From a virus (Duplodnaviria > Caudoviricetes), in IMG/VR virus record IMGVR_UViG_3300005805_000350, positions 1 to 28,443 of that record: 28,443 nt of DNA; one strand, given 5' to 3'. Made by a program: the position numbers and the translations under genes. The notes under the pieces were generated by a model. It did not search any database. It had not been told where the DNA came from and saw nothing but the letters and a program-made list of their open reading frames with translations. Positions 1-10,179 of this stretch are shown here, one piece after another; the stretch's first letter is position 1, and every line of letters begins with the position of its first letter.

Positions 1-62
1 GGGTTACGATCCCCGACCTCAGCCTTGACAGGGCCGTGTTCAGACCACTAAACTATGGCGGC
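1..62 (-). tRNA. tRNA-Asp(GTC), 3' end cut by window edge
   Basis: Minus: GCCGCCA TA GTTT AGTGGTCT GAAC; anticodon arm CGGCC-CTGTCAA-GGCTG; T-loop ATCGTAA. Confidence 0.85.
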
Positions 63-98
63 AGAATAAGTGCTGATAGCCGCGGCTATCAGCGGGGG

Positions 99-153
99 TT
101 TCGGGCTTTACCAATAAGCTACGACATTCCGAATCGAACGGAATTCTCCGAAA
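99..153 (-). ncRNA. Minimal permuted tRNA-elbow mimic (T arm then D arm, no acceptor stem)
   Basis: TTTCGG-AGAA-TTCCG TTCGATT CGGAA-TGTCG-TA-GCTT ATTGGTA AAGC-CCGAAA. Confidence 0.6.
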
Positions 154-155
154 TA

Positions 156-236
156 TGGTGGACCTACAGGGAATTAAACCCATGGGCGACTTGGATATCA
201 TCATTTCGAATAAGTCGCTGTAGTCATCTTCGGCCC
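156..236 (-). ncRNA. tmRNA-TLD-like / D-stemless Ala-identity RNA ending in ACCA
   Basis: GGGCCGA...TAGGTCC ACCA with G3:U70; no D stem; stem GCGACTT/AAGTCGC; degenerate T arm GGG TTTAATT CCC. Confidence 0.5.
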
Positions 237-244
237 ATTGTTCT

Positions 245-329
245 TGGTGGTTGACCAGGGATTCGAACCCCGTATGCCGGAGGCCACGGTTTTACAGACC
301 GCTGAAGTCGCCAATGCTTCTCGTCAACC
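245..329 (-). tRNA. tRNA-Tyr(GTA)
   Basis: GCGGT-CTGTAAA-ACCGT, long variable arm, GGTTCGAATCC, ACCA. Confidence 0.95.
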
Positions 330-336
330 TTAATAT

Positions 337-432
337 CATAATGAAACATACTGCCCAATCAGTCACAAGTGTAAGTTGGTCCCTTGCGGGTGTCCTTGAA
401 TGGTGGGTGTCGAACCCACATGTTTCATTATG
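337..432 (-). ncRNA. Terminal-stem RNA family member A (contains a T arm)
   Basis: 13-bp inverted repeat CATAATGAAACAT (337-349 / 420-432) enclosing GTGGG TTCGACA CCCAC and CCC-GCAA-GGG. Confidence 0.55.
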
Positions 433-515
433 GTGCCTCAGAAGGGAGTCGAACCCTTACGCCTTGCGGCGCCGGATTTTGAGTCCGGTGCGTCTGCCAG
501 TTCCGCCACCGAGGC
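431..515 (-). tRNA. tRNA-Leu(CAA)
   Basis: CCGGA-CTCAAAA-TCCGG, long variable arm, ACCA. Confidence 0.95.
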
Positions 516-522
516 AATTGTT

Positions 523-562
523 TGGAGCGGGCGAAGAGGTTCAAACTCTCAACAAACTCCGC
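523..562 (-). pseudogene. Gly-type tRNA minihelix/remnant (acceptor + T arm only)
   Basis: GCGG...GAGAG TTTGAAC CTCTT CGCCCGC T CCA; no D or anticodon arm. Confidence 0.45.
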
Positions 563-576
563 TGTTTGATGCACAA

Positions 577-667
577 CCATATTGAAACACACTCTATGCC
601 TAACATTGGCAGCGGCAGATTGCGTACTAGCTGGGTTTCACACTGACAAGAATATGTTTCATTATAG
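577..667 (-). ncRNA. Terminal-stem RNA family member B
   Basis: Minus arms TATAATGAAACATATT ... AGTGTGTTTCAATATGG. Confidence 0.55.
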
Positions 668-744
668 CCATATTGGAGCATACTAGCGGGAACTACCCTC
701 AAGAAAGGCATCGTGACCCTTTCAGATAATATGCTCCAATATGG
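668..744 (-). ncRNA. Terminal-stem RNA family member C
   Basis: Perfect 15-bp inverted repeat CCATATTGGAGCATA (668-682 / 730-744). Confidence 0.6.
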
Positions 745-765
745 TGCGTGATATTGCTACCACGC
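742..765 (-). ncRNA. CCA-ended microhelix
   Basis: GCGTGGTA-GCAA-TATCACGC-ACCA. Confidence 0.5.
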
Positions 766-782
766 TACCATATGTCCTGTGC

Positions 783-793
783 TGTTAAAGAAC
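783..793 (-). promoter_or_regulatory. boxA antitermination element
   Basis: GTTCTTTAACA vs rrn boxA TGCTCTTTAACA; three identical copies in 783-1290. Confidence 0.55.
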
Positions 794-812
794 CAATTCA
801 GCTCACTTGATA

Positions 813-833
813 TGGCACCCACCTGCGTGGGCG
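813..833 (-). ncRNA. CCA-ended microhelix
   Basis: GCCCAC-GCAG-GTGGGT-GCCA. Confidence 0.4.
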
Positions 834-842
834 CACATATTG

Positions 843-1040
843 TTAGGCCAGCTGGTAAGTGACGCGGATCTTAGCGCCGTTCCCCAGCTTTAGCGTGACT
901 GCGCAGCTACCATCCTTGCGAACACTGCGACGCTGACTTACAATCTCAACAGCTTGGTTTCGCGCAACATTGGTCACAATGCGGCGGCTGCGAAGCTGTT
1001 TGCTCAGCAGTTCAACCAGGGTTTGATTGGATTTAGCCAT
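843..1040 (-). CDS. Small basic hypothetical protein (65 aa)
   Basis: ATG preceded by AGGAG SD; downstream of sigma70 promoter and boxA. Confidence 0.75.
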   Translation of the reverse strand: MAKSNQTLVELLSKQLRSRRIVTNVARNQAVEIVSQRRSVRKDGSCAVTLKLGNGAKIRVTYQLA

Positions 1041-1091
1041 GCTTATTTCTCCTAGTAATATGGCAACATTGCCATATCAAGTGAGCCAAAT

Positions 1092-1102
1092 TGTTAAAGA
1101 AC
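1092..1102 (-). promoter_or_regulatory. boxA antitermination element
   Basis: CGTTCTTTAACA about 20 nt downstream of a -10 box. Confidence 0.7.
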
Positions 1103-1122
1103 GTTTACTAACTTATGCAGCT

Positions 1123-1151
1123 ATTATACTGCCATTGTTAATTAAAGTCAA
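1123..1151 (-). promoter_or_regulatory. sigma70-type promoter
   Basis: TTGACT-17 nt-TATAAT. Confidence 0.8.
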
Positions 1152-1156
1152 CCAAT

Positions 1157-1272
1157 CGCCATTCAACTGCACACTCACAGGACTTGAACCTGCCAACCTC
1201 GCTCCATACGGGGCGAAGCTAGATCCCACCTCTATCAGCGTGGCCTACGCCTTTGTGTGCATGTGGATAGCG
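1157..1272 (-). ncRNA. tRNA-like structured RNA without D arm or CCA
   Basis: TGCACAC/GTGTGCA stem, two internal hairpins, T arm GCAGG TTCAAGT CCTGT; own promoter and boxA. Confidence 0.55.
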
Positions 1273-1279
1273 ACTGGTT

Positions 1280-1290
1280 TGTTAAAGAAC
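1280..1290 (-). promoter_or_regulatory. boxA antitermination element
   Basis: CGTTCTTTAACA downstream of promoter 1309-1337. Confidence 0.7.
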
Positions 1291-1308
1291 GTTAACTGCA
1301 ATATCGTT

Positions 1309-1337
1309 ATATTAACAAAGATTGGGTTAAAAGTCAA
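1309..1337 (-). promoter_or_regulatory. sigma70-type promoter
   Basis: TTGACT-17 nt-TAATAT. Confidence 0.65.
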
Positions 1338-1357
1338 CTTACTTTTAGCACTGTAAG

Positions 1358-2140
1358 TCATTGATTTGTATAGCTTTTTATTGCAGATTCTAGTGCTGTA
1401 CGTACATCACGCATACCATAATAGGCAGGAATTACACAGGTTGACCTTGCCGCTGCTGTGGCCTTTACAAATTCATCCTGTTCAAACCATTCAGCATTTT
1501 CAATGCCTAACAGTTTAGCTATCTCATAATTGTTTATACTGCCTTGATTTACTAGGTTATATGCAGCATTTTCAACCCCAGCCTCTAATAGCTCACAGGC
1601 TACTCTTATGGCCTCATCATGGTCAGTCAAACTATTTTCTCCGCTGTGCGCTAACTTGCCACCAGCAGCATAACGTTTTAGTTTAGTTAAGAGGTTTTTG
1701 TTTTCCTCTTTGGCAGTGAAAGGCATTCTAATTCTAAATACCACACTGCGATTTTTTAAATAGCTGTCGCTAAGTCCTTTGCTGATACTATAGGTACTAC
1801 CAAAAAAGTTTGGTTCAGCATCCTCACTATCTATCACACCTTGATATATACATCCACTGCTAAAATGGGCTAACCGTTGTTGTAATTTATTACAGGCTTC
1901 ATATAACAAAATTGGAAATACACTGTTACCCATCATAGTAACTTCTTTTTGTTGTTCACAGGCATCAACATTTGGTACACCCGTAACTCCAGCACAGTTT
2001 ACTACCCAATCGTAAGTATTGTTAGCTATAGCATCAAAAACTTGTTGATGGCTCACTAGCTCAACCGTATGGTTACGTTGTTGTAATTGTTGAAATACCT
2101 TTTTACCGGTCCATCCTCTACCCACCACTAGTAATTTCAT
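1358..2140 (-). CDS. NAD(P)-dependent epimerase/reductase, RmlD-like (NDP-rhamnose synthesis)
   Basis: N-terminal GRGWTG Rossmann motif, NCAGVTGVPNVDACE, SSGCIY, YSISK (YxxxK). Confidence 0.85.
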   Translation of the reverse strand: MKLLVVGRGWTGKKVFQQLQQRNHTVELVSHQQVFDAIANNTYDWVVNCAGVTGVPNVDACEQQKEVTMMGNSVFPILLYEACNKLQQRLAHFSSGCIYQGVIDSEDAEPNFFGSTYSISKGLSDSYLKNRSVVFRIRMPFTAKEENKNLLTKLKRYAAGGKLAHSGENSLTDHDEAIRVACELLEAGVENAAYNLVNQGSINNYEIAKLLGIENAEWFEQDEFVKATAAARSTCVIPAYYGMRDVRTALESAIKSYTNQ

Positions 2141-2192
2141 TGTTTATCCTCTATATGGATATTTAAAGACTAAGGTTCTTGTACAAAAATAA

Positions 2193-2270
2193 TGGTGCAG
2201 GAAGTCTGAATTGAACAGACATATCCGGCTCTTCAGACCGGCGCAATAGGACCACCTCTGCCATTCCTGC
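2193..2270 (-). tRNA. tRNA-Phe(GAA)
   Basis: CCGGT-CTGAAGA-GCCGG; GCAGGAA/TTCCTGC ACCA. Confidence 0.9.
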
Positions 2271-2275
2271 ATTGC

Positions 2276-2390
2276 AGGCTCGCTGTTTACGTGCTAACCG
2301 TTACACTAAGTCCAGCGACCAACCTGGGTGCGGAGTCGAACCGCTCTCTCTTTTTCACAGTAAGAATAATAAGATTGCTGAAACGAGCCT
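2276..2390 (-). ncRNA. YrlA-like circularly permuted tRNA mimic, CAGCAA family
   Basis: AGGCTCG/CGAGCCT terminal stem, TTTCAGCAA, T arm GCGG TTCGACT CCGC, closed acceptor CCAG..CTGG, D arm TAGTGTAACGGTTAGCAC. Confidence 0.7.
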
Positions 2391-2403
2391 AAAGGTCTAT
2401 ACT

Positions 2404-2477
2404 TGGAGCGGGATAGGAGAATCGAACTCCTTTGACTAGCTTGGAAGGCTAGGACACAACCAATATGCCAATCCCGC
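2404..2477 (-). tRNA. tRNA-Gly(TCC)
   Basis: CTAGC-CTTCCAA-GCTAG; U73 CCA. Confidence 0.95.
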
Positions 2478-2483
2478 ATTGTT

Positions 2484-2561
2484 TGGTCCGAGTGGCAGGA
2501 TTCGAACCTGCGGCCTCCTGCTCCCAAAGCAGGCCGTCTAGCCAGACTGACATACACTCGG
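2484..2561 (-). tRNA. tRNA-Pro(TGG)
   Basis: CCTGC-TTTGGGA-GCAGG; C1:G72, ACCA. Confidence 0.95.
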
Positions 2562-2597
2562 ATAATACTATTTACACACTAACAATCAATGTGTAAA

Positions 2598-2626
2598 ATT
2601 ATAATGTCTCTGCATTATAATGTCAA
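2598..2626 (-). promoter_or_regulatory. sigma70 promoter (perfect consensus)
   Basis: TTGACA-17 nt-TATAAT. Confidence 0.85.
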
Positions 2627-2642
2627 CACTTTTTGAATAAAC

Positions 2643-2757
2643 AGGATGCATTCTCTTTGGGCGGCTGTCCTACCATTAGACTAAAGTCCTTGCGGACCTG
2701 TGGGAATCGAACCCACACTCGCTGCTTTTGGCAAGAAATATTTGCTGTAAGCATCCT
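2643..2757 (-). ncRNA. YrlA-like circularly permuted tRNA mimic, CAGCAA family
   Basis: AGGATGC/GCATCCT stem, TTACAGCAA, GTGGG TTCGATT CCCAC, AGGTCC-GCAA-GGACTT, TA GTCT AATGGTA GGAC. Confidence 0.8.
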
Positions 2758-2762
2758 AAAAC

Positions 2763-2835
2763 TGGTTGCGGTCGCCGGAGATGATCACGGTCCTTTAGGT
2801 TATGAGCCTAACGTGCGCCACTACACTACCCCGCA
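2763..2835 (-). tRNA. tRNA-Met(CAT), fMet-like, atypical or possibly degenerate
   Basis: TTAGG-CTCATAA-CCTAA; end CCGCAACCA; T-loop ATCATCT; mismatches in acceptor and T stems. Confidence 0.7.
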
Positions 2836-2844
2836 TTTGAAACT

Positions 2845-2920
2845 TGGTGGAGGATAACGGGATCGAACCGTTGACCTATAGCTTGCAAAGCTACCGCTCT
2901 CCCAGCTGAGCTAATCCCCC
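2845..2920 (-). tRNA. tRNA-Ala(TGC)
   Basis: GGGGGAT/ATCCTCC with G3:U70; loop TTTGCAA. Confidence 0.97.
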
Positions 2921-2928
2921 AAATCTTT

Positions 2929-3003
2929 TGGTGCCACGTGTCTGGATCGAACAGACGACCTATCGCTTACAAGGCGATTGCACTACCACTGTGCTAACAT
3001 GGC
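2929..3003 (-). tRNA. tRNA-Thr(TGT)
   Basis: ATCGC-CTTGTAA-GCGAT; ACCA. Confidence 0.95.
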
Positions 3004-3124
3004 ATATCCTTTACAGCGAGGGCAATTTCCGGAAAACTGCGCGGCTCACTGTTTCGTCCTCTAAAATATAACAAGGAGTTTACAACAATGTCAGGGGAGG
3101 ACTCTTCAGAAGGTACCCTGCATC
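3004..3124 (-). ncRNA. Type I hammerhead ribozyme
   Basis: CCTT-CTGAAGA-GTCCTC..GAGGAC-GAAA-CAGTGAG..CTCGCTG-TA-AAGG; complete catalytic core, GUA cleavage triplet at 3014-3012. Confidence 0.85.
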
Positions 3125-3133
3125 ACGTTTACT

Positions 3134-3162
3134 ACTATATAGTATTCCTTATTTCATGTCAA
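3134..3162 (-). promoter_or_regulatory. sigma70-type promoter
   Basis: TTGACA-17 nt-TATAGT, just upstream of the hammerhead. Confidence 0.75.
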
Positions 3163-3582
3163 CTATTTTTCATAACTCCAACCTAACTGTTGCATCAATT
3201 TCTTTTTAACACGTAAGTTAGGATTACGGAAGATACCAGGATCATCAAACCCTAACATTACAGCCACTTCAGTTACTGCACCGCTGCGACAGATGCCCGC
3301 TGTGCAATGTACCACAACATTCATTTGGTTGTGTTTTGCATGTTGCAGTAACTTCACTAACTCTGCGGCTTGTTGTTCAGTGATGCCATGTTCCTCAGCA
3401 CCCTCGTCCTTATCTTCAATATCAAGAAATTGAAAACGATGCACTTCGCAAAACTCTCTTTGAGTTTCAGGCCACCAGGGGCTCACCGTATCCGCTATTT
3501 GAATCAGCATGCTGTTAGCACCAGGATCTGGAAAATTGTTCTGTGCGACATCTATGGCCGCTACGTTTCTAATCCACATCAT
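3163..3582 (-). CDS. Cys-based (PTP/dual-specificity-like) phosphatase
   Basis: HCTAGICRS = HCx5R catalytic loop. Confidence 0.8.
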   Translation of the reverse strand: MMWIRNVAAIDVAQNNFPDPGANSMLIQIADTVSPWWPETQREFCEVHRFQFLDIEDKDEGAEEHGITEQQAAELVKLLQHAKHNQMNVVVHCTAGICRSGAVTEVAVMLGFDDPGIFRNPNLRVKKKLMQQLGWSYEK

Positions 3583-3591
3583 AGTTCCTTT

Positions 3592-3777
3592 TTATGTAAT
3601 ACTCTTTTTTATAACCCAACGAAATTCTAAATCGTAGGTTCTAAACGGCAATGCAATACGGCCTTCGCGTATAGCTCGGTGAAGCAGTTCATGCCTGCCC
3701 GCAGTGTTAGTAATTCCAATTAGTTCACCTCTGTAAATTACTTCACAGTCATATTTGTCTAACGGGCTATCACTCAT
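3592..3777 (-). CDS. Small hypothetical protein
   Basis: AGGAG SD; fills the gap between tRNA-Cys and the phosphatase. Confidence 0.7.
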   Translation of the reverse strand: MSDSPLDKYDCEVIYRGELIGITNTAGRHELLHRAIREGRIALPFRTYDLEFRWVIKKSIT

Positions 3778-3794
3778 ATTGCACTCCTTAAATT

Positions 3795-3880
3795 TGGAGG
3801 ATCAGGTAGGATTCTAACCTACGTGGGTATTAACCGTCCGCTTTGCAGGCGGATGCATTCGCACACTCTGCCACTGATCC
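3795..3880 (-). tRNA. tRNA-Cys(GCA) with long variable arm
   Basis: TCCGC-CTGCAAA-GCGGA; variable arm GGT-TAAT-ACC; U73; T-loop TTAGAAT. Confidence 0.85.
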
Positions 3881-3886
3881 AATGTT

Positions 3887-3978
3887 TGGCGGAGAGTATA
3901 GGATTCGAACCTATGCACCGGGTTTCCCCGGTGGACGGTTTAGCAAACCGCTGCCTTCAGCCACTCGGCCAACTCTCC
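3887..3978 (-). tRNA. tRNA-Ser(GCT)
   Basis: GCGGT-TTGCTAA-ACCGT; long variable arm; G73. Confidence 0.95.
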
Positions 3979-3985
3979 ATGTTCT

Positions 3986-4059
3986 TGGCTCCGGTGGACA
4001 GAATCGAACTGCCATCAAAAGTTTTGGAGACTTCTGTCTTACCATTAGACTACACCGGA
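3986..4059 (-). tRNA. tRNA-Trp(CCA)
   Basis: GAAGT-CTCCAAA-ACTTT; G73. Confidence 0.93.
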
Positions 4060-4670
4060 ATTATTTTTTTTACGCCACCTAAAACCCATCCTTGTGTTAA
4101 TAAATTTTGTATATCTTCAGGATGCGCCCATTTAGCCGTGATACCATTATTGATTAGTTTTTTATTTTTTTGTGTCAAAGATAGTTTTTGTTTTTGTTCA
4201 GCTGAAATAGTTTTTCCTAAATTGATCTGTCTGACATGTTTTTTGAATGTCTCTGGATCTTTTTTGGCCCAATTATTCGACGCTAATTTTTTCCTTGTTT
4301 CTTCGGTTGTCACCTGCTTCAATGCAGACTGACGTATCTTTTCTTTGGTTTCTTCAGAATGCTTTCTACCAGCAAATGCACCTATAATACCAGGATTTCC
4401 ACCAGATCCGCCAGGCTTTATATTATATGTATTTGCTGTTGTTATAAAATCTTCAGTAACTATCTCTGCTTCTTTAGCAAACATGTCTTTTTTATTAGTA
4501 AAGACAAATAGAATTTCTTTCTTGAAATTCTCAATTCCGTATTTTACTATAGCTCTTTTAAGATATTTTCCCGATCCCATGTAACCATCATTTATGTCTT
4601 TGGTTGCATGAGCACCTATATAAACTTTATTATCTAATAAATTTGTTATTTTGTAAATAAGATAGAACAT
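4050..4670 (-). CDS. GIY-YIG homing endonuclease (Seg-like) with NUMOD3 motifs
   Basis: [45 protein letters not shown]; stop codon lies within the tRNA-Trp 5' end. Confidence 0.9.
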
Positions 4671-4695
4671 ACTACCTCCTATACTTATTTATGCA

Positions 4696-4729
4696 AGACC
4701 GGTGCACCACCATTTATGCGTCTGGGCCT
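4696..4729 (-). pseudogene. Orphan 5' half of a tRNA (Trp-like)
   Basis: AGGCCCAGACGCATAAATGGTGGTGCACCGGTCT; GCACCGGTCT resembles the D/anticodon junction of enterobacterial tRNA-Trp as recalled. Confidence 0.45.
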
Positions 4730-4760
4730 TTATGTTTCTATTATACAGATTAGCGTATTT

Positions 4761-5087
4761 TTAGTCTACACTCATTTCACCAAAATCACGCACTACACCA
4801 GGAGCATCCCAGTATATGCAACACATTCTATTGGTGACCCATTGGTTAACCTTTTTATGTGCGCAGAAAAATGCGGTTTTAGCTGTGCCTTTGCCAGGCA
4901 ATGTTACCAAGTCGCTGATCTTGGCATTTTTGAGATCTTTCTTATCTTTAATCTTTAACCCACCGTTACTGTTTAATTCGCCGGGTTCTACTGCTCTAAC
5001 ATCAGCACCCTTTTTCCAACTACAGTTACCGCAGTTGGTTCCTACTACTTTGGGTGCTGCTTCATTAATAATTTGTATTATACGCAT
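4761..5087 (-). CDS. Cys-rich hypothetical protein, putative virion-internal
   Basis: MRIIQIINE N-terminus; CGNC..C..CC; TATAAATA at 5093-5100. Confidence 0.7.
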   Translation of the reverse strand: MRIIQIINEAAPKVVGTNCGNCSWKKGADVRAVEPGELNSNGGLKIKDKKDLKNAKISDLVTLPGKGTAKTAFFCAHKKVNQWVTNRMCCIYWDAPGVVRDFGEMSVD

Positions 5088-5092
5088 AACAT

Positions 5093-5100
5093 TATTTATA
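5093..5100 (-). promoter_or_regulatory. T4-type late promoter TATAAATA
   Basis: Exact match; NATAAATA variants also at 4686, 9257, 9838, 15176, 28408. Confidence 0.65.
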
Positions 5101-5110
5101 CAAATTAATT

Positions 5111-5189
5111 TGGCGACACGTATGGGATTCTAACCCATGATCTCCGCCGTGACAGGGCGGCGCATTAAGACAGGCTATGCTAACGTGCC
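5111..5189 (-). tRNA. tRNA-Asp(GTC)
   Basis: CCGCC-CTGTCAC-GGCGG; G73; T-loop TTAGAAT. Confidence 0.92.
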
Positions 5190-5196
5190 ATTGTTT

Positions 5197-5275
5197 TGGC
5201 TCCGCATCTGGGAATCGAACCCAGCTAGTCATTGATTAACAGTCAAGTCCGTGCACCATGCTCGGATTCTGCGGA
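5197..5275 (-). tRNA. tRNA-Asn(GTT)
   Basis: TTGA-CTGTTAA-TCAA; TCCGCA/TGCGGA G CCA. Confidence 0.88.
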
Positions 5276-5283
5276 ATTGTCTT

Positions 5284-5357
5284 TGGTGCTCCCAGCCGGT
5301 AACGATCCGACGTCTCAGCTTTACCAAAGCCGTGTAATACCTTTATACTATGGGAGC
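5284..5357 (-). tRNA. tRNA-Thr(GGT)
   Basis: CGGCT-TTGGTAA-AGCTG; T-loop ATCGTTA. Confidence 0.88.
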
Positions 5358-5369
5358 GAAATTAAATTA

Positions 5370-6077
5370 TTAACCAACCCAACGAGCATAAAGCCCGTTG
5401 TCGGTACCACCCTCTTCAGGATGTTTGGCACTGTAAATTTGTATGCCTTGAATTAAAGATTTTAATTCTTGGCTCTTACCAGCACCTGATACTGGAACAC
5501 TTATCGTAATCCTACCACCTTTACGACCCAACACTTCTGCATCACCCTTCTTCAACAGCCGTATTAATCTTGCTGCATCAGGGTCATCAACATCAGGGTA
5601 TGCTTGCCAATCTGAACTGTATATTGATACATATCCTGATACTTCTACGCCGGGAATCCGATGTAAATTGGTCCACAAGCGTATAGCTTCTGGTGTTTGC
5701 GATTCATCTGCTACCACTGTAAGACCTAAAATCTTTGTGGCAATAATATATAACAATTGACCCAGACCCTGTCCACGATAGTTACTATCCAATACTACAT
5801 TGGCCACCATCACTGCTCTGGGCAATGGAAATGGGGTAGGACGCACAGCTAGATAACCCACTGCTTGAATTTTTTGCGGATTCTTAATATCAAACAGGTA
5901 TATAGCTTTGGATGATCCAGTAAATGGTGATTGATAGGAACTAAACGTGTATCCATACTGTTTATTACCAGGAACAGGTTTAATAGTTTTACGTTCAGCG
6001 GCACTGATCTTCTCTTGAGAGAAGTCTACAGATCCTTTATCACCGCGTTGACGCTGTATTTCAGATATTCGCATCAA
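5370..6077 (-). CDS. GNAT-fold acetyltransferase-like protein
   Basis: VVLDSNYRGQGLGQLLY acetyl-CoA binding motif A; AIRLW motif-B-like segment. Confidence 0.65.
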   Translation of the reverse strand: MMRISEIQRQRGDKGSVDFSQEKISAAERKTIKPVPGNKQYGYTFSSYQSPFTGSSKAIYLFDIKNPQKIQAVGYLAVRPTPFPLPRAVMVANVVLDSNYRGQGLGQLLYIIATKILGLTVVADESQTPEAIRLWTNLHRIPGVEVSGYVSIYSSDWQAYPDVDDPDAARLIRLLKKGDAEVLGRKGGRITISVPVSGAGKSQELKSLIQGIQIYSAKHPEEGGTDNGLYARWVG

Positions 6078-6101
6078 GTATTTATTTTACTTTAATACTT
6101 T

Positions 6102-6192
6102 TGGCGGAGAATAAAGGAATCGAACCCTCAGCCCTACTAAGGTGCTGGCCGGGTTTTCGAGACCCGTTGCCCACCATTGGGCGCTATTCTCC
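6102..6192 (-). tRNA. tRNA-Ser(CGA)
   Basis: CGGGT-CTCGAAA-ACCCG; long variable arm; G73. Confidence 0.92.
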
Positions 6193-6202
6193 CTAAATTA
6201 AA

Positions 6203-6304
6203 TAGGTTCGCTTGTTCCTTGCGGAAAAGATGATCAGTCTCTGCCTCGGCTACTCTAACTTCGTAGGTCAAAGCTACCCTTGCTGTCAACGGCACTTGCG
6301 AATT
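6203..6304 (-). ncRNA. Structured RNA with ACAGCAA motif and Arg-like anticodon hairpin
   Basis: TTCGC/GCGAA ends, GACAGCAA, GCTTTGAC-CTACGAA-GTTAGAGT, TTCC-GCAA-GGAA. Confidence 0.5.
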
Positions 6305-6307
6305 CTG

Positions 6308-6399
6308 TGGCGGAAGGTAAAGGATTTGAACCTTTGTGCACTTTTCAGCGCCCACTGACTTCCAATCAGGGCCAATAGACCAAACTCTGGCAACCTTCC
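6308..6399 (-). tRNA. tRNA-Ser(GGA)
   Basis: CTGA-TTGGAAG-TCAG; long variable arm; G73. Confidence 0.9.
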
Positions 6400-6403
6400 A
6401 AAT

Positions 6404-6440
6404 TGGTTGGATCTGTGGATTATAGTGACATACAGACCCA
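6404..6440 (-). ncRNA. CCA-ended hairpin (microhelix)
   Basis: TGGGTCTGT..ACAGATCCA-ACCA. Confidence 0.45.
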
Positions 6441-6456
6441 TGCTGCCACTGCGCAC

Positions 6457-6546
6457 TGGCGGAAGCGGTGAGATTTGAACTCACGAAACCTTTCGGTTTG
6501 CTAGTTTTCAAGACTAGTGCAATCAGCCGGACTCTGCCACGCTTCC
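6457..6546 (-). tRNA. tRNA-Ser(TGA)
   Basis: CTAGT-CTTGAAA-ACTAG; G73. Confidence 0.95.
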
Positions 6547-6552
6547 AAATTT

Positions 6553-7335
6553 TTACACTTGTTTGGTGGTAGCAAATATATCATGACCAACCACCATATA
6601 ACTATATCCTAACTTCTTTAAAACTTCTATTAACTTTGCTCTACCTTGATCACTGGTGTCCTGTCTTTGACTATCACCGAGATTTAAATACTCTACATAC
6701 AAGTCAGGCTTAAACTTTTCTATGGTCTGAGCTGCACCATTTATTACATCTAAATCTAATCCTTCAGCATCAATTTTAATATAATCAACTTTTGGTACTC
6801 TATGTTCCAACACAAATCTATCAATGGTTGTCATTTTGATACGCTGCATAGCACCGGCTACGGATTTGTATGTATCACTGAGATCAGCACCACCTAACGT
6901 AAATGCAGCAAAACTACCAGGTTGATCATAATCTACTTCAGGTATTTCAATCCATTTTTCTTCTCTGCCTATTGCAGTTTCATATGCATAGACATTAAAA
7001 ATATTGTTGATAGCAAGATTGCCACATAATATTTGAAATACCTGTCGTTGTGGTTCAAAACAATAAAGTTTACCACCTCTTTTAGCTAACCAAGGTGCGA
7101 TAAATGTAGCAAATGTGCCAATGTTAGCACCAATATCAATCACCACAGGATCAACGGTATTAATCAAAGCTTTACTAGCTATATCAGTTTCAACGGTGTT
7201 GTTATTGCCGTGGTCTAACAAAAATCTCCCTACGCCAACACCATCTGGTCCACTATCATTTCTGTTTAAAATCATAGTGCCGTGATCACAGCTGACTAAT
7301 ATATTGCGAATAGGTTTGTCATCTAAAGTAAACAT
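6553..7335 (-). CDS. FkbM-family methyltransferase (start revised to ATG 7335)
   Basis: VIDIGANIG, FEPQ, YIKIDAEG; the longer ORF start overlaps a tRNA. Confidence 0.9.
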   Translation of the reverse strand: MFTLDDKPIRNILVSCDHGTMILNRNDSGPDGVGVGRFLLDHGNNNTVETDIASKALINTVDPVVIDIGANIGTFATFIAPWLAKRGGKLYCFEPQRQVFQILCGNLAINNIFNVYAYETAIGREEKWIEIPEVDYDQPGSFAAFTLGGADLSDTYKSVAGAMQRIKMTTIDRFVLEHRVPKVDYIKIDAEGLDLDVINGAAQTIEKFKPDLYVEYLNLGDSQRQDTSDQGRAKLIEVLKKLGYSYMVVGHDIFATTKQV

Positions 7336-7386
7336 ATTAGTAATTAGTCCTAAGCTTGACCACAACACAAAATGTGACACATTATT

Positions 7387-7462
7387 TGGTAGTCCCGGAA
7401 GGATTCTAACCCTCAACGTTCCGCTAATCGGGCGGACATTCTAACAATTGAATTACAGGACC
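7387..7462 (-). tRNA. tRNA-Ile(GAT)-like with aberrant anticodon loop
   Basis: Full cloverleaf; TCCGC-CCGATTA-GCGGA (C33, U37); T-loop TTAGAAT; ACCA. Confidence 0.7.
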
Positions 7463-7471
7463 ATTGTTTTT

Positions 7472-7546
7472 TGGCAGGAGATGTAGGAATCGAACCTACG
7501 AACCTGGTTTCAAAGACCAGTATGTCTACCACTCCATCAATCTTCA
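7472..7546 (-). tRNA. tRNA-Gln(TTG)
   Basis: CTGGT-CTTTGAA-ACCAG; unpaired 1:72, G73. Confidence 0.88.
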
Positions 7547-7555
7547 ACTGATAAA

Positions 7556-7636
7556 CCATAATGGAACATACTCCACACTCTTATACGCCCGCGCTTTGTA
7601 AGCCGTTAAAATATAAGCGAATATATTCTAGTATGG
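7556..7636 (-). ncRNA. Terminal-stem RNA family member D
   Basis: Minus arms CCATACTAGAATATATT ... AGTATGTTCCATTATGG; starts at the tRNA-Glu CCA. Confidence 0.55.
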
Positions 7637-7709
7637 CGTCCTGTGGGGGAATCGAACCCGCCCTCTGTGGCTTGAAGGGCCACGGATCTCACCAGAAATC
7701 CAACAGGAC
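7634..7709 (-). tRNA. tRNA-Glu(TTC) with C33
   Basis: GTGGC-CCTTCAA-GCCAC; GTCCTGT/ACAGGAC G CCA. Confidence 0.88.
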
Positions 7710-7724
7710 AAAAACTGCTGGCTG

Positions 7725-8294
7725 TTACACCAGCAGCTTCTTAACGCGACTATGCTTAGGCAAGAAATCCTTAAGGAACATCATTTGATCTGCCAAAATA
7801 TTTCTATTTTGTAAAACCAATGCTTCAGCCTTGTCTGGAACATAAGGAACATACAACAATTCTAAACCAGCTTCCTTAAGTGTCATGTCATCTTTGTGAG
7901 AATTGCATGGCGTGCATGCAGTTACACAATTTGTCCACGACGTTGGACCACCCTTGCTAGCAGGAACAATATGATCCCTAGTCAATTGATGATCTTTAAA
8001 TTCTTTGCCACAGTATGCACAAATATGCAGATCTCGCCTAAACAAGTTTCGGTTGTTCAGCGTAGGCGTCCGATTCACATATTTGAATTTGGAATTTAGA
8101 GCTACAATGCTGGCAACTTCAACTTGAGAGCGCTGACCTGTCATGCGTGAAGTGCCACCCTTAAACATAAATTCCTCATCGCCAAATTCCCAGCCAATGA
8201 GACCTTTGCATTTTAGAGTAACCGCATCCTGCCAGGTGATCCAATTGTGCGGCTGACCACCACTGTTTAATGCCAGTATCAAGTTACGCATCAT
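7725..8294 (-). CDS. McrA-like HNH endonuclease
   Basis: RDLHICAYCG, LTRDHIVPASKGG, WTNCVTACTPCNSHK; GGAG SD before ATG 8294. Confidence 0.88.
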   Translation of the reverse strand: MMRNLILALNSGGQPHNWITWQDAVTLKCKGLIGWEFGDEEFMFKGGTSRMTGQRSQVEVASIVALNSKFKYVNRTPTLNNRNLFRRDLHICAYCGKEFKDHQLTRDHIVPASKGGPTSWTNCVTACTPCNSHKDDMTLKEAGLELLYVPYVPDKAEALVLQNRNILADQMMFLKDFLPKHSRVKKLLV

Positions 8295-8342
8295 GCTCTC
8301 CAATTAAAAATTTTACTTTTAGATATTTACTACAAATAAAAC

Positions 8343-8436
8343 TGGTACTCCCGGAAGGAATCGAACCTTCACCATGCCCTCATCTAGAGCTAAACCGGAA
8401 TATAAAGCCGGCGTTCTACCATTAAACTACGGGAGC
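8343..8436 (-). tRNA. tRNA with TAT anticodon (Ile-UAU) and long variable arm
   Basis: CCGGC-TTTATAT-TCCGG; variable arm GCTCT-AGATG-AGGGC; A73 CCA; 94 nt. Confidence 0.8.
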
Positions 8437-8447
8437 ATAAAATAAAC

Positions 8448-8503
8448 AGGATGGACTTTTTCACTTTTTGACAGTAAGTTTTTTAATTTGCTGTAACCAT
8501 CCT
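8448..8503 (-). ncRNA. Short CAGCAA-family RNA with Asp-like anticodon hairpin
   Basis: AGGATGG/CCATCCT stem, TTACAGCAA, ACTT-A-CTGTCAA-A-AAGT. Confidence 0.65.
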
Positions 8504-8511
8504 CAAAACTT

Positions 8512-8590
8512 TGGGGTGATAGACCAGACTCGCACTGGCTAATATACTGTTTCACGGACAGTAGGCTCGACTACTTCGCTTTCTATCACC
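8512..8590 (-). tRNA. tRNA-His(GTG) with C33
   Basis: G-1:C73 eight-bp acceptor; ACTGT-CCGTGAA-ACAGT; T-loop TGCGAGT. Confidence 0.88.
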
Positions 8591-8599
8591 ATTGTATCT

Positions 8600-8677
8600 T
8601 GGTCTCCCATGCTGAGTTCGAACCAGCGTTATTCCTGATCCCAAATCAGGTACCATACCAGGCTAGGCGAATGGGAG
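8600..8677 (-). tRNA. tRNA-Pro(TGG), second copy
   Basis: CCTGA-TTTGGGA-TCAGG; C1:G72 ACCA. Confidence 0.92.
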
Positions 8678-8692
8678 ATAGTTCTTAAAATT

Positions 8693-8776
8693 TGGTGCCC
8701 CAGGGGAGACTCGAACTCCCACGCCTCTCGGCAACGGCTTCTAAGACCGTCATGGCTACCATTACATCACCGGGGC
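8693..8776 (-). tRNA. tRNA-Leu(TAG)
   Basis: ACGGT-CTTAGAA-GCCGT; long variable arm. Confidence 0.95.
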
Positions 8777-8782
8777 AAATAT

Positions 8783-8856
8783 TGGAGCGGGTAGCCGGTT
8801 ACGCTCCGGCGATTTCACTTTGGCAAAGTGATAGGTTACTATTACATCATACCCGC
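8783..8856 (-). tRNA. tRNA-Gly(GCC), divergent elbow
   Basis: TCACT-TTGCCAA-AGTGA; U73; T-loop AGCGTAA; D-loop AATAGTA. Confidence 0.85.
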
Positions 8857-9302: not shown

Positions 9303-9335
9303 ATATAACTATTTAACACCCTCTTTGGAAGGTGT

Positions 9336-9406
9336 ATAATAAAGTGTACCACCTTCTAATCCGCACCATTACAGGTTATCCAAACCAGTATGATACACTT
9401 TATTAT
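9336..9406 (-). ncRNA. Terminal-stem RNA, divergent member E
   Basis: Perfect 13-bp inverted repeat ATAATAAAGTGTA (9336-9348 / 9394-9406). Confidence 0.45.
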
Positions 9407-9524
9407 CTGCCATTTATACTCCGCCGTTATCGCCAGCGTTTCATCCGGTCAGCCGCCCGTTTGCAGGATGTTTATAGTGCCCTGCGAGACCTCGTTTCTC
9501 ACCACACTTTCTCTTTCTTACACT

Positions 9525-9553
9525 ATCCTAACAAAGTTTTTAATTTTTGTCAA
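9525..9553 (-). promoter_or_regulatory. sigma70-type promoter just downstream of the attenuator terminator
   Basis: TTGACA-17 nt-TAGGAT. Confidence 0.6.
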
Positions 9554-9557
9554 CTAC

Positions 9558-9592
9558 AAAAACAAAAACCCCAGGGTGTTTAATCCTGGGGT
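9558..9592 (-). terminator. Intrinsic terminator of putative attenuator
   Basis: ACCCCAGG-ATTAAACAC-CCTGGGGT followed by TTTTGTTTTT. Confidence 0.85.
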
Positions 9593-9616
9593 CCTTTTGA
9601 GTTTGTGGAATTTTAT

Positions 9617-9763
9617 TTAACTATTCCGCCCTTCTCCCAAGGACCCCTTGCTAGGCTCTACTGCACGATCATTACTGCCACTGATAATGGTCCAATATGA
9701 TGGCATAAAGCCTATCTGTTTGGCCCCACATGTCAGTTTATGTAACGAAGTTCTTTGCATCAT
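9617..9763 (-). CDS. Putative attenuator leader peptide (48 aa) containing all 20 amino acids
   Basis: MMQRTSLHKLTCGAKQIGFMPSYWTIISGSNDRAVEPSKGSLGEGRNS; AGGA before ATG; GGGGTCCTT in the ORF complements the terminator 5' arm. Confidence 0.75.
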   Translation of the reverse strand: MMQRTSLHKLTCGAKQIGFMPSYWTIISGSNDRAVEPSKGSLGEGRNS

Positions 9764-9770
9764 GTTTCCT

Positions 9771-9799
9771 ATTATATTGTATCTAGTCTTTATTGTCAA
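9771..9799 (-). promoter_or_regulatory. sigma70 promoter (perfect consensus) for the leader ORF
   Basis: TTGACA-17 nt-TATAAT; ATG lies 7 nt after the -10 box. Confidence 0.85.
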
Positions 9800-9858: not shown

Positions 9859-10047
9859 TTACTTATCTTTAGGCTGCATTTTTGCTATAATCTTATTTAT
9901 AATACTACTACCAGTATTTGTCAATAAAATTGGTAAAATTGCATGAATCAATAAAACAAAACCTGCAAGTAAACATAAACCTGCCATTGTTGCAGCATGC
10001 TTGGCATGCTGTGTATATGTCATGTTTACTTGTTTTAAATGATCCAT
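9859..10047 (-). CDS. Small membrane protein (DUF6356-like)
   Basis: HLKQVNMTYTQH..hydrophobic stretch..HAILP pattern. Confidence 0.6.
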   Translation of the reverse strand: MDHLKQVNMTYTQHAKHAATMAGLCLLAGFVLLIHAILPILLTNTGSSIINKIIAKMQPKDK

Positions 10048-10062
10048 ACACTATTTATTCTT

Positions 10063-10139
10063 TGGTGGGCCCACTAGGATTTGAACCTAGGACCAAGCGA
10101 TTATGAGTCGCCTGCTCTGACCAACTGAGCTATAGGCCC
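10063..10139 (-). tRNA. tRNA-Ile2(CAT), lysidine type
   Basis: GGGCCTATAGCTCAG..GGCGACTCATAATCGCTTGGTC resembles bacterial Ile2 rather than Met. Confidence 0.8.
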
Positions 10140-10150
10140 AACGTTCGCTT

Positions 10151-10179
10151 ATATTATACTGGTATCCAATTACTGTCAA
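10151..10179 (-). promoter_or_regulatory. sigma70-type promoter for tRNA-Ile2
   Basis: TTGACA-17 nt-TAATAT (TATAAT overlaps at 15-nt spacing). Confidence 0.6.

Follow-up and report, generated by a model that had tools for sequence, protein, structure and literature searches.

Leader-peptide attenuators of amino-acid operons include trpL, hisL and leuL and the multivalent thrL and ilvL, and in Escherichia coli the pheST attenuator, with its pheM leader, senses charged tRNA and controls a gene of the translation apparatus. It has long been asked why phages carry tRNA genes. Phage tRNAs can defeat tRNA-cleaving defences, and a T5-like tRNA-Tyr counters retron-Eco7, a rescue that depended on a strong promoter (PMC11555353, in the parts of the paper available). 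A leader of broad composition is known from the mycobacterial whiB7 (wblC) gene: according to the available parts of PMC10274678, the upstream ORF (uORF) of Mycobacterium smegmatis whiB7 contains 19 of the 20 amino acids, its composition sets the starvations that are sensed, and loss of its translation leads to read-through.

The locus described here lies in a viral record that is a linear contig, approximately 8% complete, and the whole stretch of 28,443 nucleotides that was analysed is called the window. The contig encodes terminase, UvsX, UvsY and SSB, and its terminase shares 56% identity with those of Pseudomonas phages PA5oct and Paride, 52% with that of Sinorhizobium phage Phosso and 51% with that of Agrobacterium phage Atu_ph07. 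The DNA datasets that matched the window best were lake-water metagenomes, which may be its source; in a comparison with four DNA runs, a 2022 freshwater contig was identical to it across 9500-9782, and no RNA dataset carrying the window sequence was listed. The promoter, leader ORF, antiterminator and terminator are all on the minus strand, and the features are as follows.

9799-9771, minus strand: sigma70-type promoter, TTGACA-17-TATAAT, 12 of 12 consensus positions
9763-9617, minus strand: leader ORF, 48 codons, 20 amino-acid types, 39 different codons
9763-9656, minus strand: predicted sensor segment, codons 1-36, with an internal Met at codon 20
9647-9634 (core 9647-9639), minus strand: predicted antiterminator 5′ strand, inside the ORF, 11-12 nt past the first base of Glu36
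9601-9588 (core 9596-9588), minus strand: predicted antiterminator 3′ strand, overlapping the terminator 5′ arm
9592-9558, minus strand: intrinsic terminator hairpin with U-rich tail, predicted by folding
9553-9525, minus strand: second promoter-like site, 10 of 12 consensus positions with an extended -10, directly past the terminator
9330-9512, minus strand: conserved structured RNA, first element past the terminator, ends approximate
1-8856, minus strand: tRNA array, interspersed with genes for homing endonucleases and others, likely the regulated output, truncated by the contig end

The original prediction had described a perfect sigma70 promoter, an ORF beginning 7 nt further on, an extendable 9-nt complement between the ORF and the terminator, and a tRNA array downstream. 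All of these were present, and recounting gave the same totals (20 amino acids and 31 different codons in the first 36 codons, 39 codons in the whole ORF). The 20th type is reached with Glu at codon 36. Cys, Trp, Tyr, His, Phe, Asn, Asp, Val and Glu each occur once in the sensor segment, Ala makes up 2 of the 48 residues of the leader, and no PHROG or Pfam match was found for the ORF. Because only 7 nt separate the -10 box from the ATG, the transcript of the window leader would be leaderless or nearly so, transcription being predicted to begin at the ATG or immediately ahead of it. Upstream of the leader, on the minus strand, are a 10/12 promoter, a tRNA-Met gene and a DUF6356 gene (9859-10179). 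No convincing terminator was seen ahead of the leader promoter, and upstream transcription may enter the attenuator.

In the comparison that the original prediction had proposed, such diversity was rare: among 6386 windows of 36 codons taken from the 25 genes of the window, 4 contained 20 amino acids and none contained 31 or more different codons. Base-shuffled open frames reached 20 amino acids in 115 of 20,000 cases (approximately 0.6%) and 31 codons in 437 of 20,000.

Relatives were sought in IMG/VR with a pattern of the terminator only, and 120 of about 270 loci, together with the window, gave 111 distinct elements. Under a rule blind to amino-acid content (an ORF of at least 30 codons whose end lies 15-48 nt ahead of the terminator), a leader ORF of approximately 47 codons was present in 110 of the 111 elements, the remaining one being truncated. 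All 20 amino acids were found in 86 of the 110 leaders and 19 in a further 18. The antiterminator strand was present in 106 of the 110 and was read in all three frames (64, 38 and 4 leaders), so that it is the RNA, not the peptide, that is conserved there. Same-strand tRNA genes followed 63 of the 64 elements having 2.5 kb of flank, in keeping with the predicted order of short ORF, terminator and tRNA genes. Of 92 elements, 89 had a promoter no more than 130 nt upstream of the ATG, and in 19 of 79 elements, including the window, 10 nt or less separated the ATG from its -10 box.

The same terminator pattern was applied to cellular genomes as a control (121 of about 240 loci, 118 distinct elements). 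An ORF of 30-70 codons was found in 36 of the 118, the antiterminator in 3, and an ORF with 20 types in 2 (67 and 69 residues). The leader element was not found in cellular genomes, where 12 nhmmer matches were restricted to the terminator part. Variant terminators yielded 27 further viral elements, 17 of them with 20 types. A metagenome scan (120 loci minus 5 too short, 8 duplicates and 12 previously found) yielded 95 new leaders, 76 with 20 types, and tRNA genes were downstream in 37 of 37; the pattern used in that scan contained the antiterminator, whose presence is thus not a test there. More than 200 distinct related elements share the three features overall. Among 40 records checked, each of the 5 complete genomes (347-400 kb) had one match.

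Covariance searches with Rfam gave no match over the element at E ≤ 1 in the window and no credible match in 20 short homologous loci at E ≤ 5 (best 19 bits, cut-off 42 bits); in relatives, the best 150 of 172 Rfam matches were to tRNA, tmRNA and an intron. Peptide searches with the leader gave 11 loci (43% identity over 27 residues) and no real phage match. Two other ways of finding relatives were discarded: the antiterminator-complement pattern alone gave 68 loci, only 3 of them genuine by eye, and an upstream gene of 514 aa, tried as a syntenic partner, had the element within 6 kb at only 3 of 80 loci. In two relatives, permuted (two-piece) tmRNA genes were seen upstream of the leader (L131:1083-1324 and L429:3068-3280).

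Selection for completeness was analyzed in 105 leaders (the 110 minus 4 without antiterminator and 1 longer than 55 residues), whose mean identity was 33%, and in 52 representatives, all less than 65% identical. All 20 types were present before the antiterminator in 32 of the 52 representatives, compared with 2.4 in column shuffles (maximum 9 in 2000), and in none of 210 alternative frames; coverage is thus kept while the peptide diverges, as the original prediction had anticipated. The metagenome leaders behaved in the same way (18 of 32 complete before the antiterminator, 2.6 in shuffles). Cys occurred exactly once in 93 of the 105 leaders, spread over 22 alignment columns. In 37 disjoint close pairs, with cases counted in both directions, a partner in which a sole-copy residue was replaced had that residue elsewhere in 74 of 84 cases (61 of them more than 2 residues away), whereas a partner that kept it had an extra copy elsewhere in 64 of 558 cases (53 more than 2 residues away). 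An internal Met was present in 98 of the 105 leaders and in 46 of the 52 representatives (null, 35.4); such a Met would be required for sampling of the elongator tRNA. Indels were multiples of three in 18 of 33 cases in the sensor and in 8 of 52 past the stop codon, a difference that arises partly by construction. Together, these comparisons indicate that full 20-residue coverage is itself under selection and is more than an inherited trait.

A small trans-acting protein, with the terminator merely ending its transcript, would be consistent with the pN/pS of 0.46 measured in 37 pairs of relatives, with a Trp that occupies one alignment column in 98 of the 105 leaders, and with a positionally conserved Asp-Arg-Thr-Pro-Glu motif. 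This explanation is very improbable given the mean identity of 33%, a C-terminal part read in three frames and rare residues that move yet persist; moreover, it gives no role to the covarying complement of the terminator arm. The remaining alternative, an untranslated ORF that lies by chance beside an ordinary terminator, can draw on the approximately 0.6% probability that a single such ORF has all 20 types, but it is barely credible against more than 200 distinct elements that all combine the three features and the absence of any complete frame among the 210 alternatives, and it is contradicted by the column shuffles, the relocation of sole copies and the covariation described below.

Synonymous codons were also nonrandomly used. 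The leaders contained 30.9 distinct codons on average, compared with 29.6 (maximum 30.2) when synonymous codons were permuted within alignment columns. Among the 52 leaders, the codons present more often than in this null (given in parentheses) were GCC in 47 (36.1), CAG in 48 (36.1), CCY in 43 (33.8) and ATA in 35 (28.4). When each alignment column was counted once, four-codon boxes favoured C over U (68:42, with 73 U expected from neighbouring genes) and split boxes favoured U over C (119:39, with 100 expected). In the metagenome replicate, GCC was present in 30 of 32 leaders (null, 24.7), and the ratio of TAT to TAC was 38:1. Under wobble rules, the preferred codons are either readable by a single isoacceptor or recognized through its weaker pairing. 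This codon choice fits sensing at the level of the tRNA; in known leaders, synonymous codon bias is explained by isoacceptor reading (PMC1183508, in the parts available). The original claim that the leader samples nearly every tRNA is overstated: the 20 amino acids and several isoacceptor-specific codons are kept, but codon coverage is incomplete, with CGG present in 1, AGG in 0, GTY in 14 and CTY in 23 of the 52 leaders.

The predicted switch lies between the end of the sensor and the terminator. In the window, GGGGTCCTT (9647-9639) is the exact complement of AAGGACCCC (9596-9588), and the pairing extends to 9647-9634 with 9601-9588; a 9-nt complement arose in 109 of 20,000 codon shuffles. 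By folding, the antiterminator hairpin had -26.9 kcal/mol (equalled in 0 of 200 shuffles) and the terminator -18.2 kcal/mol (1 of 200 shuffles as good). Seven core antiterminator pairs were kept in 126-131 of 131 elements, and the terminator stem covaried at one pair (C-G in 50, U-G in 46 and U-A in 35 of the 131). Covarying antiterminator pairs, which the original prediction required of homologs, were found at two positions. Among disjoint element pairs chosen as differing on the antiterminator 3′ side, both sides had changed with pairing kept in 26 of 28 at the first antiterminator pair (A-U or G-C) and in 7 of 8 at the second (C-G or U-A). The U-A form needs 13 changes on a quick tree, at least 4 of them forced by well-supported branches.

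The last new amino acid was 10 or 12 nt ahead of the antiterminator in 49 of 106 leaders, and 10-12 nt is about the edge of the cover of a ribosome. In folds of the nascent RNA in which the terminator 3′ arm was absent, the antiterminator formed in all 36 leaders with the ribosome absent or at least 12 nt upstream and in none of the 36 with the ribosome closer, a threshold that follows from the assumed 12-nt ribosome cover. At equilibrium, the naked full leader of the window folded as the terminator in 78%, and with stalls at codons 6-10 the antiterminator reached only 0.01-0.04. Because equilibrium folding gives no clean switch, the switch would depend on the order of co-transcriptional folding. 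No conserved protector or pause hairpin was found in the coding part, for which there was no consensus structure (alifold energy 0.0); absent translation would therefore also give read-through. A 5′ hairpin in the fold of the window itself was considered as a protector and rejected, since it is not conserved in relatives, and a lineage-specific hairpin is possible. In line with the caution originally attached to stalls at codons 35-36, Glu36, and often Val too, is at or beyond the edge of the sensed zone, and Val was missing ahead of the antiterminator in 14 of the 105 leaders.

In ten cultured jumbo phages, a total of 359,815 bases surrounding the tRNA clusters was examined. A motif-free leader detector, tuned after two leaders had been spotted by eye, gave three matches, each ahead of a same-strand tRNA cluster, in three of the ten phages. 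No leader was found in the fetched tRNA regions of Paride, PA5oct, Vibrio 2.275.O, A4, BF, XacN1 and BcepSauron, and these seven are weak negatives, a relaxed detector having missed both leaders of RsoM2USA. The leaders are as follows.

PV764938.1, 419754-419918 (element L560:9755-9985): Phosso leader, 54 codons, annotated as hypothetical
MF403008.1, 339118-339246 (L566:2619-2747): Atu_ph07 leader, without Cys, annotated as hypothetical
MG752970.1, at 87361, minus strand: RsoM2USA leader, found blind by the detector, unannotated
MG752970.1, at 112124, minus strand: RsoM2USA leader, 25 codons, found by eye, unannotated

In Phosso and Atu_ph07, both alphaproteobacterial phages, a leader, antiterminator and terminator precede the main tRNA cluster; Phosso, which has the same layout as the window, is cultured on Sinorhizobium meliloti. 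The Phosso leader contains 19 types, all before the antiterminator, and only Cys is missing; correspondingly, 0 of 50 tRNAs over the next 45 kb is a tRNA-Cys, with two Cys genes elsewhere. It also contains Tyr, yet no tRNA-Tyr was called in the same 45 kb. The Atu_ph07 leader has 13 types before the antiterminator, which match 15 of the 17 downstream tRNAs. In RsoM2USA, the leader at 87361 has A, D, F, G, I, K, M, N, Q, R and V upstream of the antiterminator and precedes a cluster of 22 tRNAs, 18 of which match, and the leader at 112124 has C, E, H, L, P, S, T, V, W and Y and precedes a cluster of 17 tRNAs, all of which match (leader-cluster match on amino acids, Fisher P = 2.5e-4). Both fold as antiterminator versus terminator. 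Behind one of the two, leader B, the first tRNA starts 72 nt past the stop codon. An unannotated ArfA-like gene is the first behind the terminator of the leader at 112124 (25.7 bits, cut-off 25.5).

No detectable shared sequence was found between the nucleotide profile of the freshwater family and the elements of the cultured phages. Within the freshwater family, when a residue was missing from the leader its tRNA was also missing in 8 of 15 cases, compared with 42 of 422 cases in which the leader had the residue (P = 0.016 by permutation within loci; the 23 of 40 loci whose array was complete in the fetched DNA). With all 40 loci, the count was 12 of 24 (P = 0.009). Opposite cases, in which the leader lacked a residue whose tRNA was in the array, were 7 of 15. 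Leader content thus tracks tRNA content in relatives.

The reading that we favour, with a probability of about three in four, is that the element is a ribosome-mediated transcription attenuator that would raise phage tRNA transcription when ribosomes are held up in decoding almost any amino acid. Host RNA polymerase would start at the leader promoter, followed by a ribosome. A ribosome keeping pace would advance into codons 37-48 and cover the antiterminator 5′ strand, the terminator would fold, and transcription would end near 9560. If the ribosome waited at any of codons 2-36, or never started, the antiterminator would pair with the terminator 5′ arm as this arm emerged, and polymerase would read on into the structured RNA and the tRNA genes. 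New tRNA would then shorten the wait and close a feedback loop.

With one codon per amino acid, the leader would respond poorly to mild starvation and better to the severe loss of a tRNA species. Destruction of tRNA, whether by host nucleases or by turnover in the infected cell, is a more likely trigger than starvation for three reasons: extra tRNA cures only the loss of tRNA and not amino-acid starvation, single codons respond weakly to mild starvation, and the leaders follow the tRNA content. Starvation in poor waters may nonetheless act as a trigger. The low sensitivity of single regulatory codons in theory (PMC1183508, in the parts available) would also suit a general translation-coupling sensor, in which any drop in initiation or elongation would free the antiterminator and codon-specific stalls would add little, with ribosome shortage, antibiotics and dormancy as inputs. 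Such a sensor would agree with the lack of a conserved protector hairpin, with the antiterminator that untranslated nascent RNA forms in 36 of 36 folds, and with the rise of whiB7 expression on start-codon loss (PMC10274678, in the parts available). However, the selection for all residues, the wandering single Cys, the internal Met, the isoacceptor-specific codons and the split leaders of RsoM2USA are left unexplained by it. We consider it unlikely as a replacement for the attenuator reading, alongside which it can operate.

Control in the window phage is probably partial, as the original prediction had cautioned. The weaker promoter-like site at 9553-9525 probably gives a basal level and the attenuator a boost. 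Strong promoter-like sites within the array at 3162, 2626 and 1151, also foreseen, probably serve its far part. In relatives, a promoter was found within 120 nt past the terminator in 6 of 108 elements, and one matching 11-12 of 12 positions lay within 2.5 kb downstream in 31 of 62. With default settings, ARAGORN called 21 tRNA genes in the window, 20 of them downstream of the leader on the same strand and one (Met) upstream; with relaxed settings, 24 were downstream, and additional ones were found by Rfam.

The structured RNA at 9330-9512 has similar sequence behind 82 of 102 relatives and, in 32 sequences, a covarying first hairpin with an invariant loop; no Rfam match was found for it. An ORF of at least 35 codons starting 45 nt or less past the terminator was present in 73 of 102 elements, 70 of them one family by eye. 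In relatives, the protein of approximately 52 residues encoded there would be the first regulated product; it is basic and helical-looking (L087:3052-3204, L100:3051-3209 and L125:3052-3213), with no Pfam match (6 of 6) and no Atlas match above 0.87. The main output could be this first unit (the small gene and the structured RNA), with internal promoters setting tRNA levels, and the frequency of the small ORF, of the RNA and of internal promoters (31 of 62) would favour such an arrangement. We judge it improbable: the small gene is absent in the window, promoters immediately past the terminator are found in only 6 of 108 elements, leader content tracks tRNA content, and the first tRNA behind RsoM2USA leader B lies 72 nt past the stop codon.

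The array of the window had several further peculiarities, all on the minus strand. An HNH gene (9287-8862) lies between a 5′ tRNA fragment (approximately 9302-9281) and a degenerate tRNA (8856-8786) with a GCC anticodon, placed as if inserted into a tRNA gene. A cloverleaf with a GTG anticodon at 8512-8592 is likely a tRNA-His that was missed by ARAGORN and Rfam, and a tRNA at 8343-8436, whose TAT anticodon decodes ATA without lysidine, has a variable region of unusual length. Short hairpin RNAs occur among the tRNA genes at approximately 8445-8500 and at 2667-2828, the latter with a weak Rfam YrlA match (2667-2717, 27.8 bits, below the cut-off) and tRNA-like pieces (2700-2828). Genes within the array lie at 3163-3582, 5370-6077, 6553-7416 and 1358-2140, and the types found in the array are phosphatase-like, weakly GNAT-like, an FkbM methyltransferase, a nucleotide-sugar epimerase and three homing endonucleases.

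A wider proposal, tentative and held at slightly less than even odds, is that in large phages every tRNA array is gated by a leader whose amino acids and isoacceptor-specific codons are those of the array, an all-20 leader corresponding to a complete array. The leader would be a built-in alarm for tRNA-destroying host immunity, providing counter-defence tRNAs and rescue factors such as ArfA on demand. A real feedback sensor would mean that the phage gauges its tRNA supply and reacts to it, and that the threatened tRNAs can be read from the residues and codons of each leader; the 240-nt element would also offer a small, naturally occurring detector of decoding stress.

In the open-access literature, no description of an all-amino-acid leader was found (subscription papers, the supplements of PMC5737381 and files 1, 2 and 4 of PMC10690425 were outside this search), and "attenuat" had 0 occurrences in the full texts of PMC5737381, PMC10690425, PMC11555353, PMC11242549, PMC6102473, PMC7824862 and PMC8504454. 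For the tRNA-Tyr system, the parts of PMC11555353 available describe a strong promoter and no demand-driven control.

The geometry of the trp, his and thr attenuators, to which the original prediction had appealed, is present in the order of promoter, short ORF and intrinsic terminator (here predicted) and in the opposition of antiterminator and terminator, without the codon runs, as had been remarked. Also shared with that type, according to the parts of PMC1183508 available, are a ribosome position that decides the structure, an antiterminator 5′ strand in the 3′ part of the ORF, and biased synonymous codon choice. The trp-type leaders have runs of one to three amino acids, a protector or pause hairpin (1:2) that enforces termination, and biosynthetic or synthetase genes under control, whereas the phage leaders have all 20 amino acids with the rare ones once, no such hairpin that was found, and tRNA genes downstream. 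The pheST attenuator concerns one amino acid and a synthetase gene, and the phage leader all amino acids and viral tRNA genes. The whiB7 attenuator, compared by description (no sequence likeness is expected), shares the broad composition and the opposition of antiterminator and terminator; in the available parts of PMC10274678, its coverage varies by species, its Ala enrichment is conserved and its output is a transcription factor. In the phage family, by comparison, full coverage is selected, Ala is 2 of 48 in the window leader, and tRNA, HNH and other genes, with no whiB7, lie downstream. Judged from these sequences, the element is real, conserved and distinctively selected, and it would be a known attenuator mechanism in a new form and a new role.
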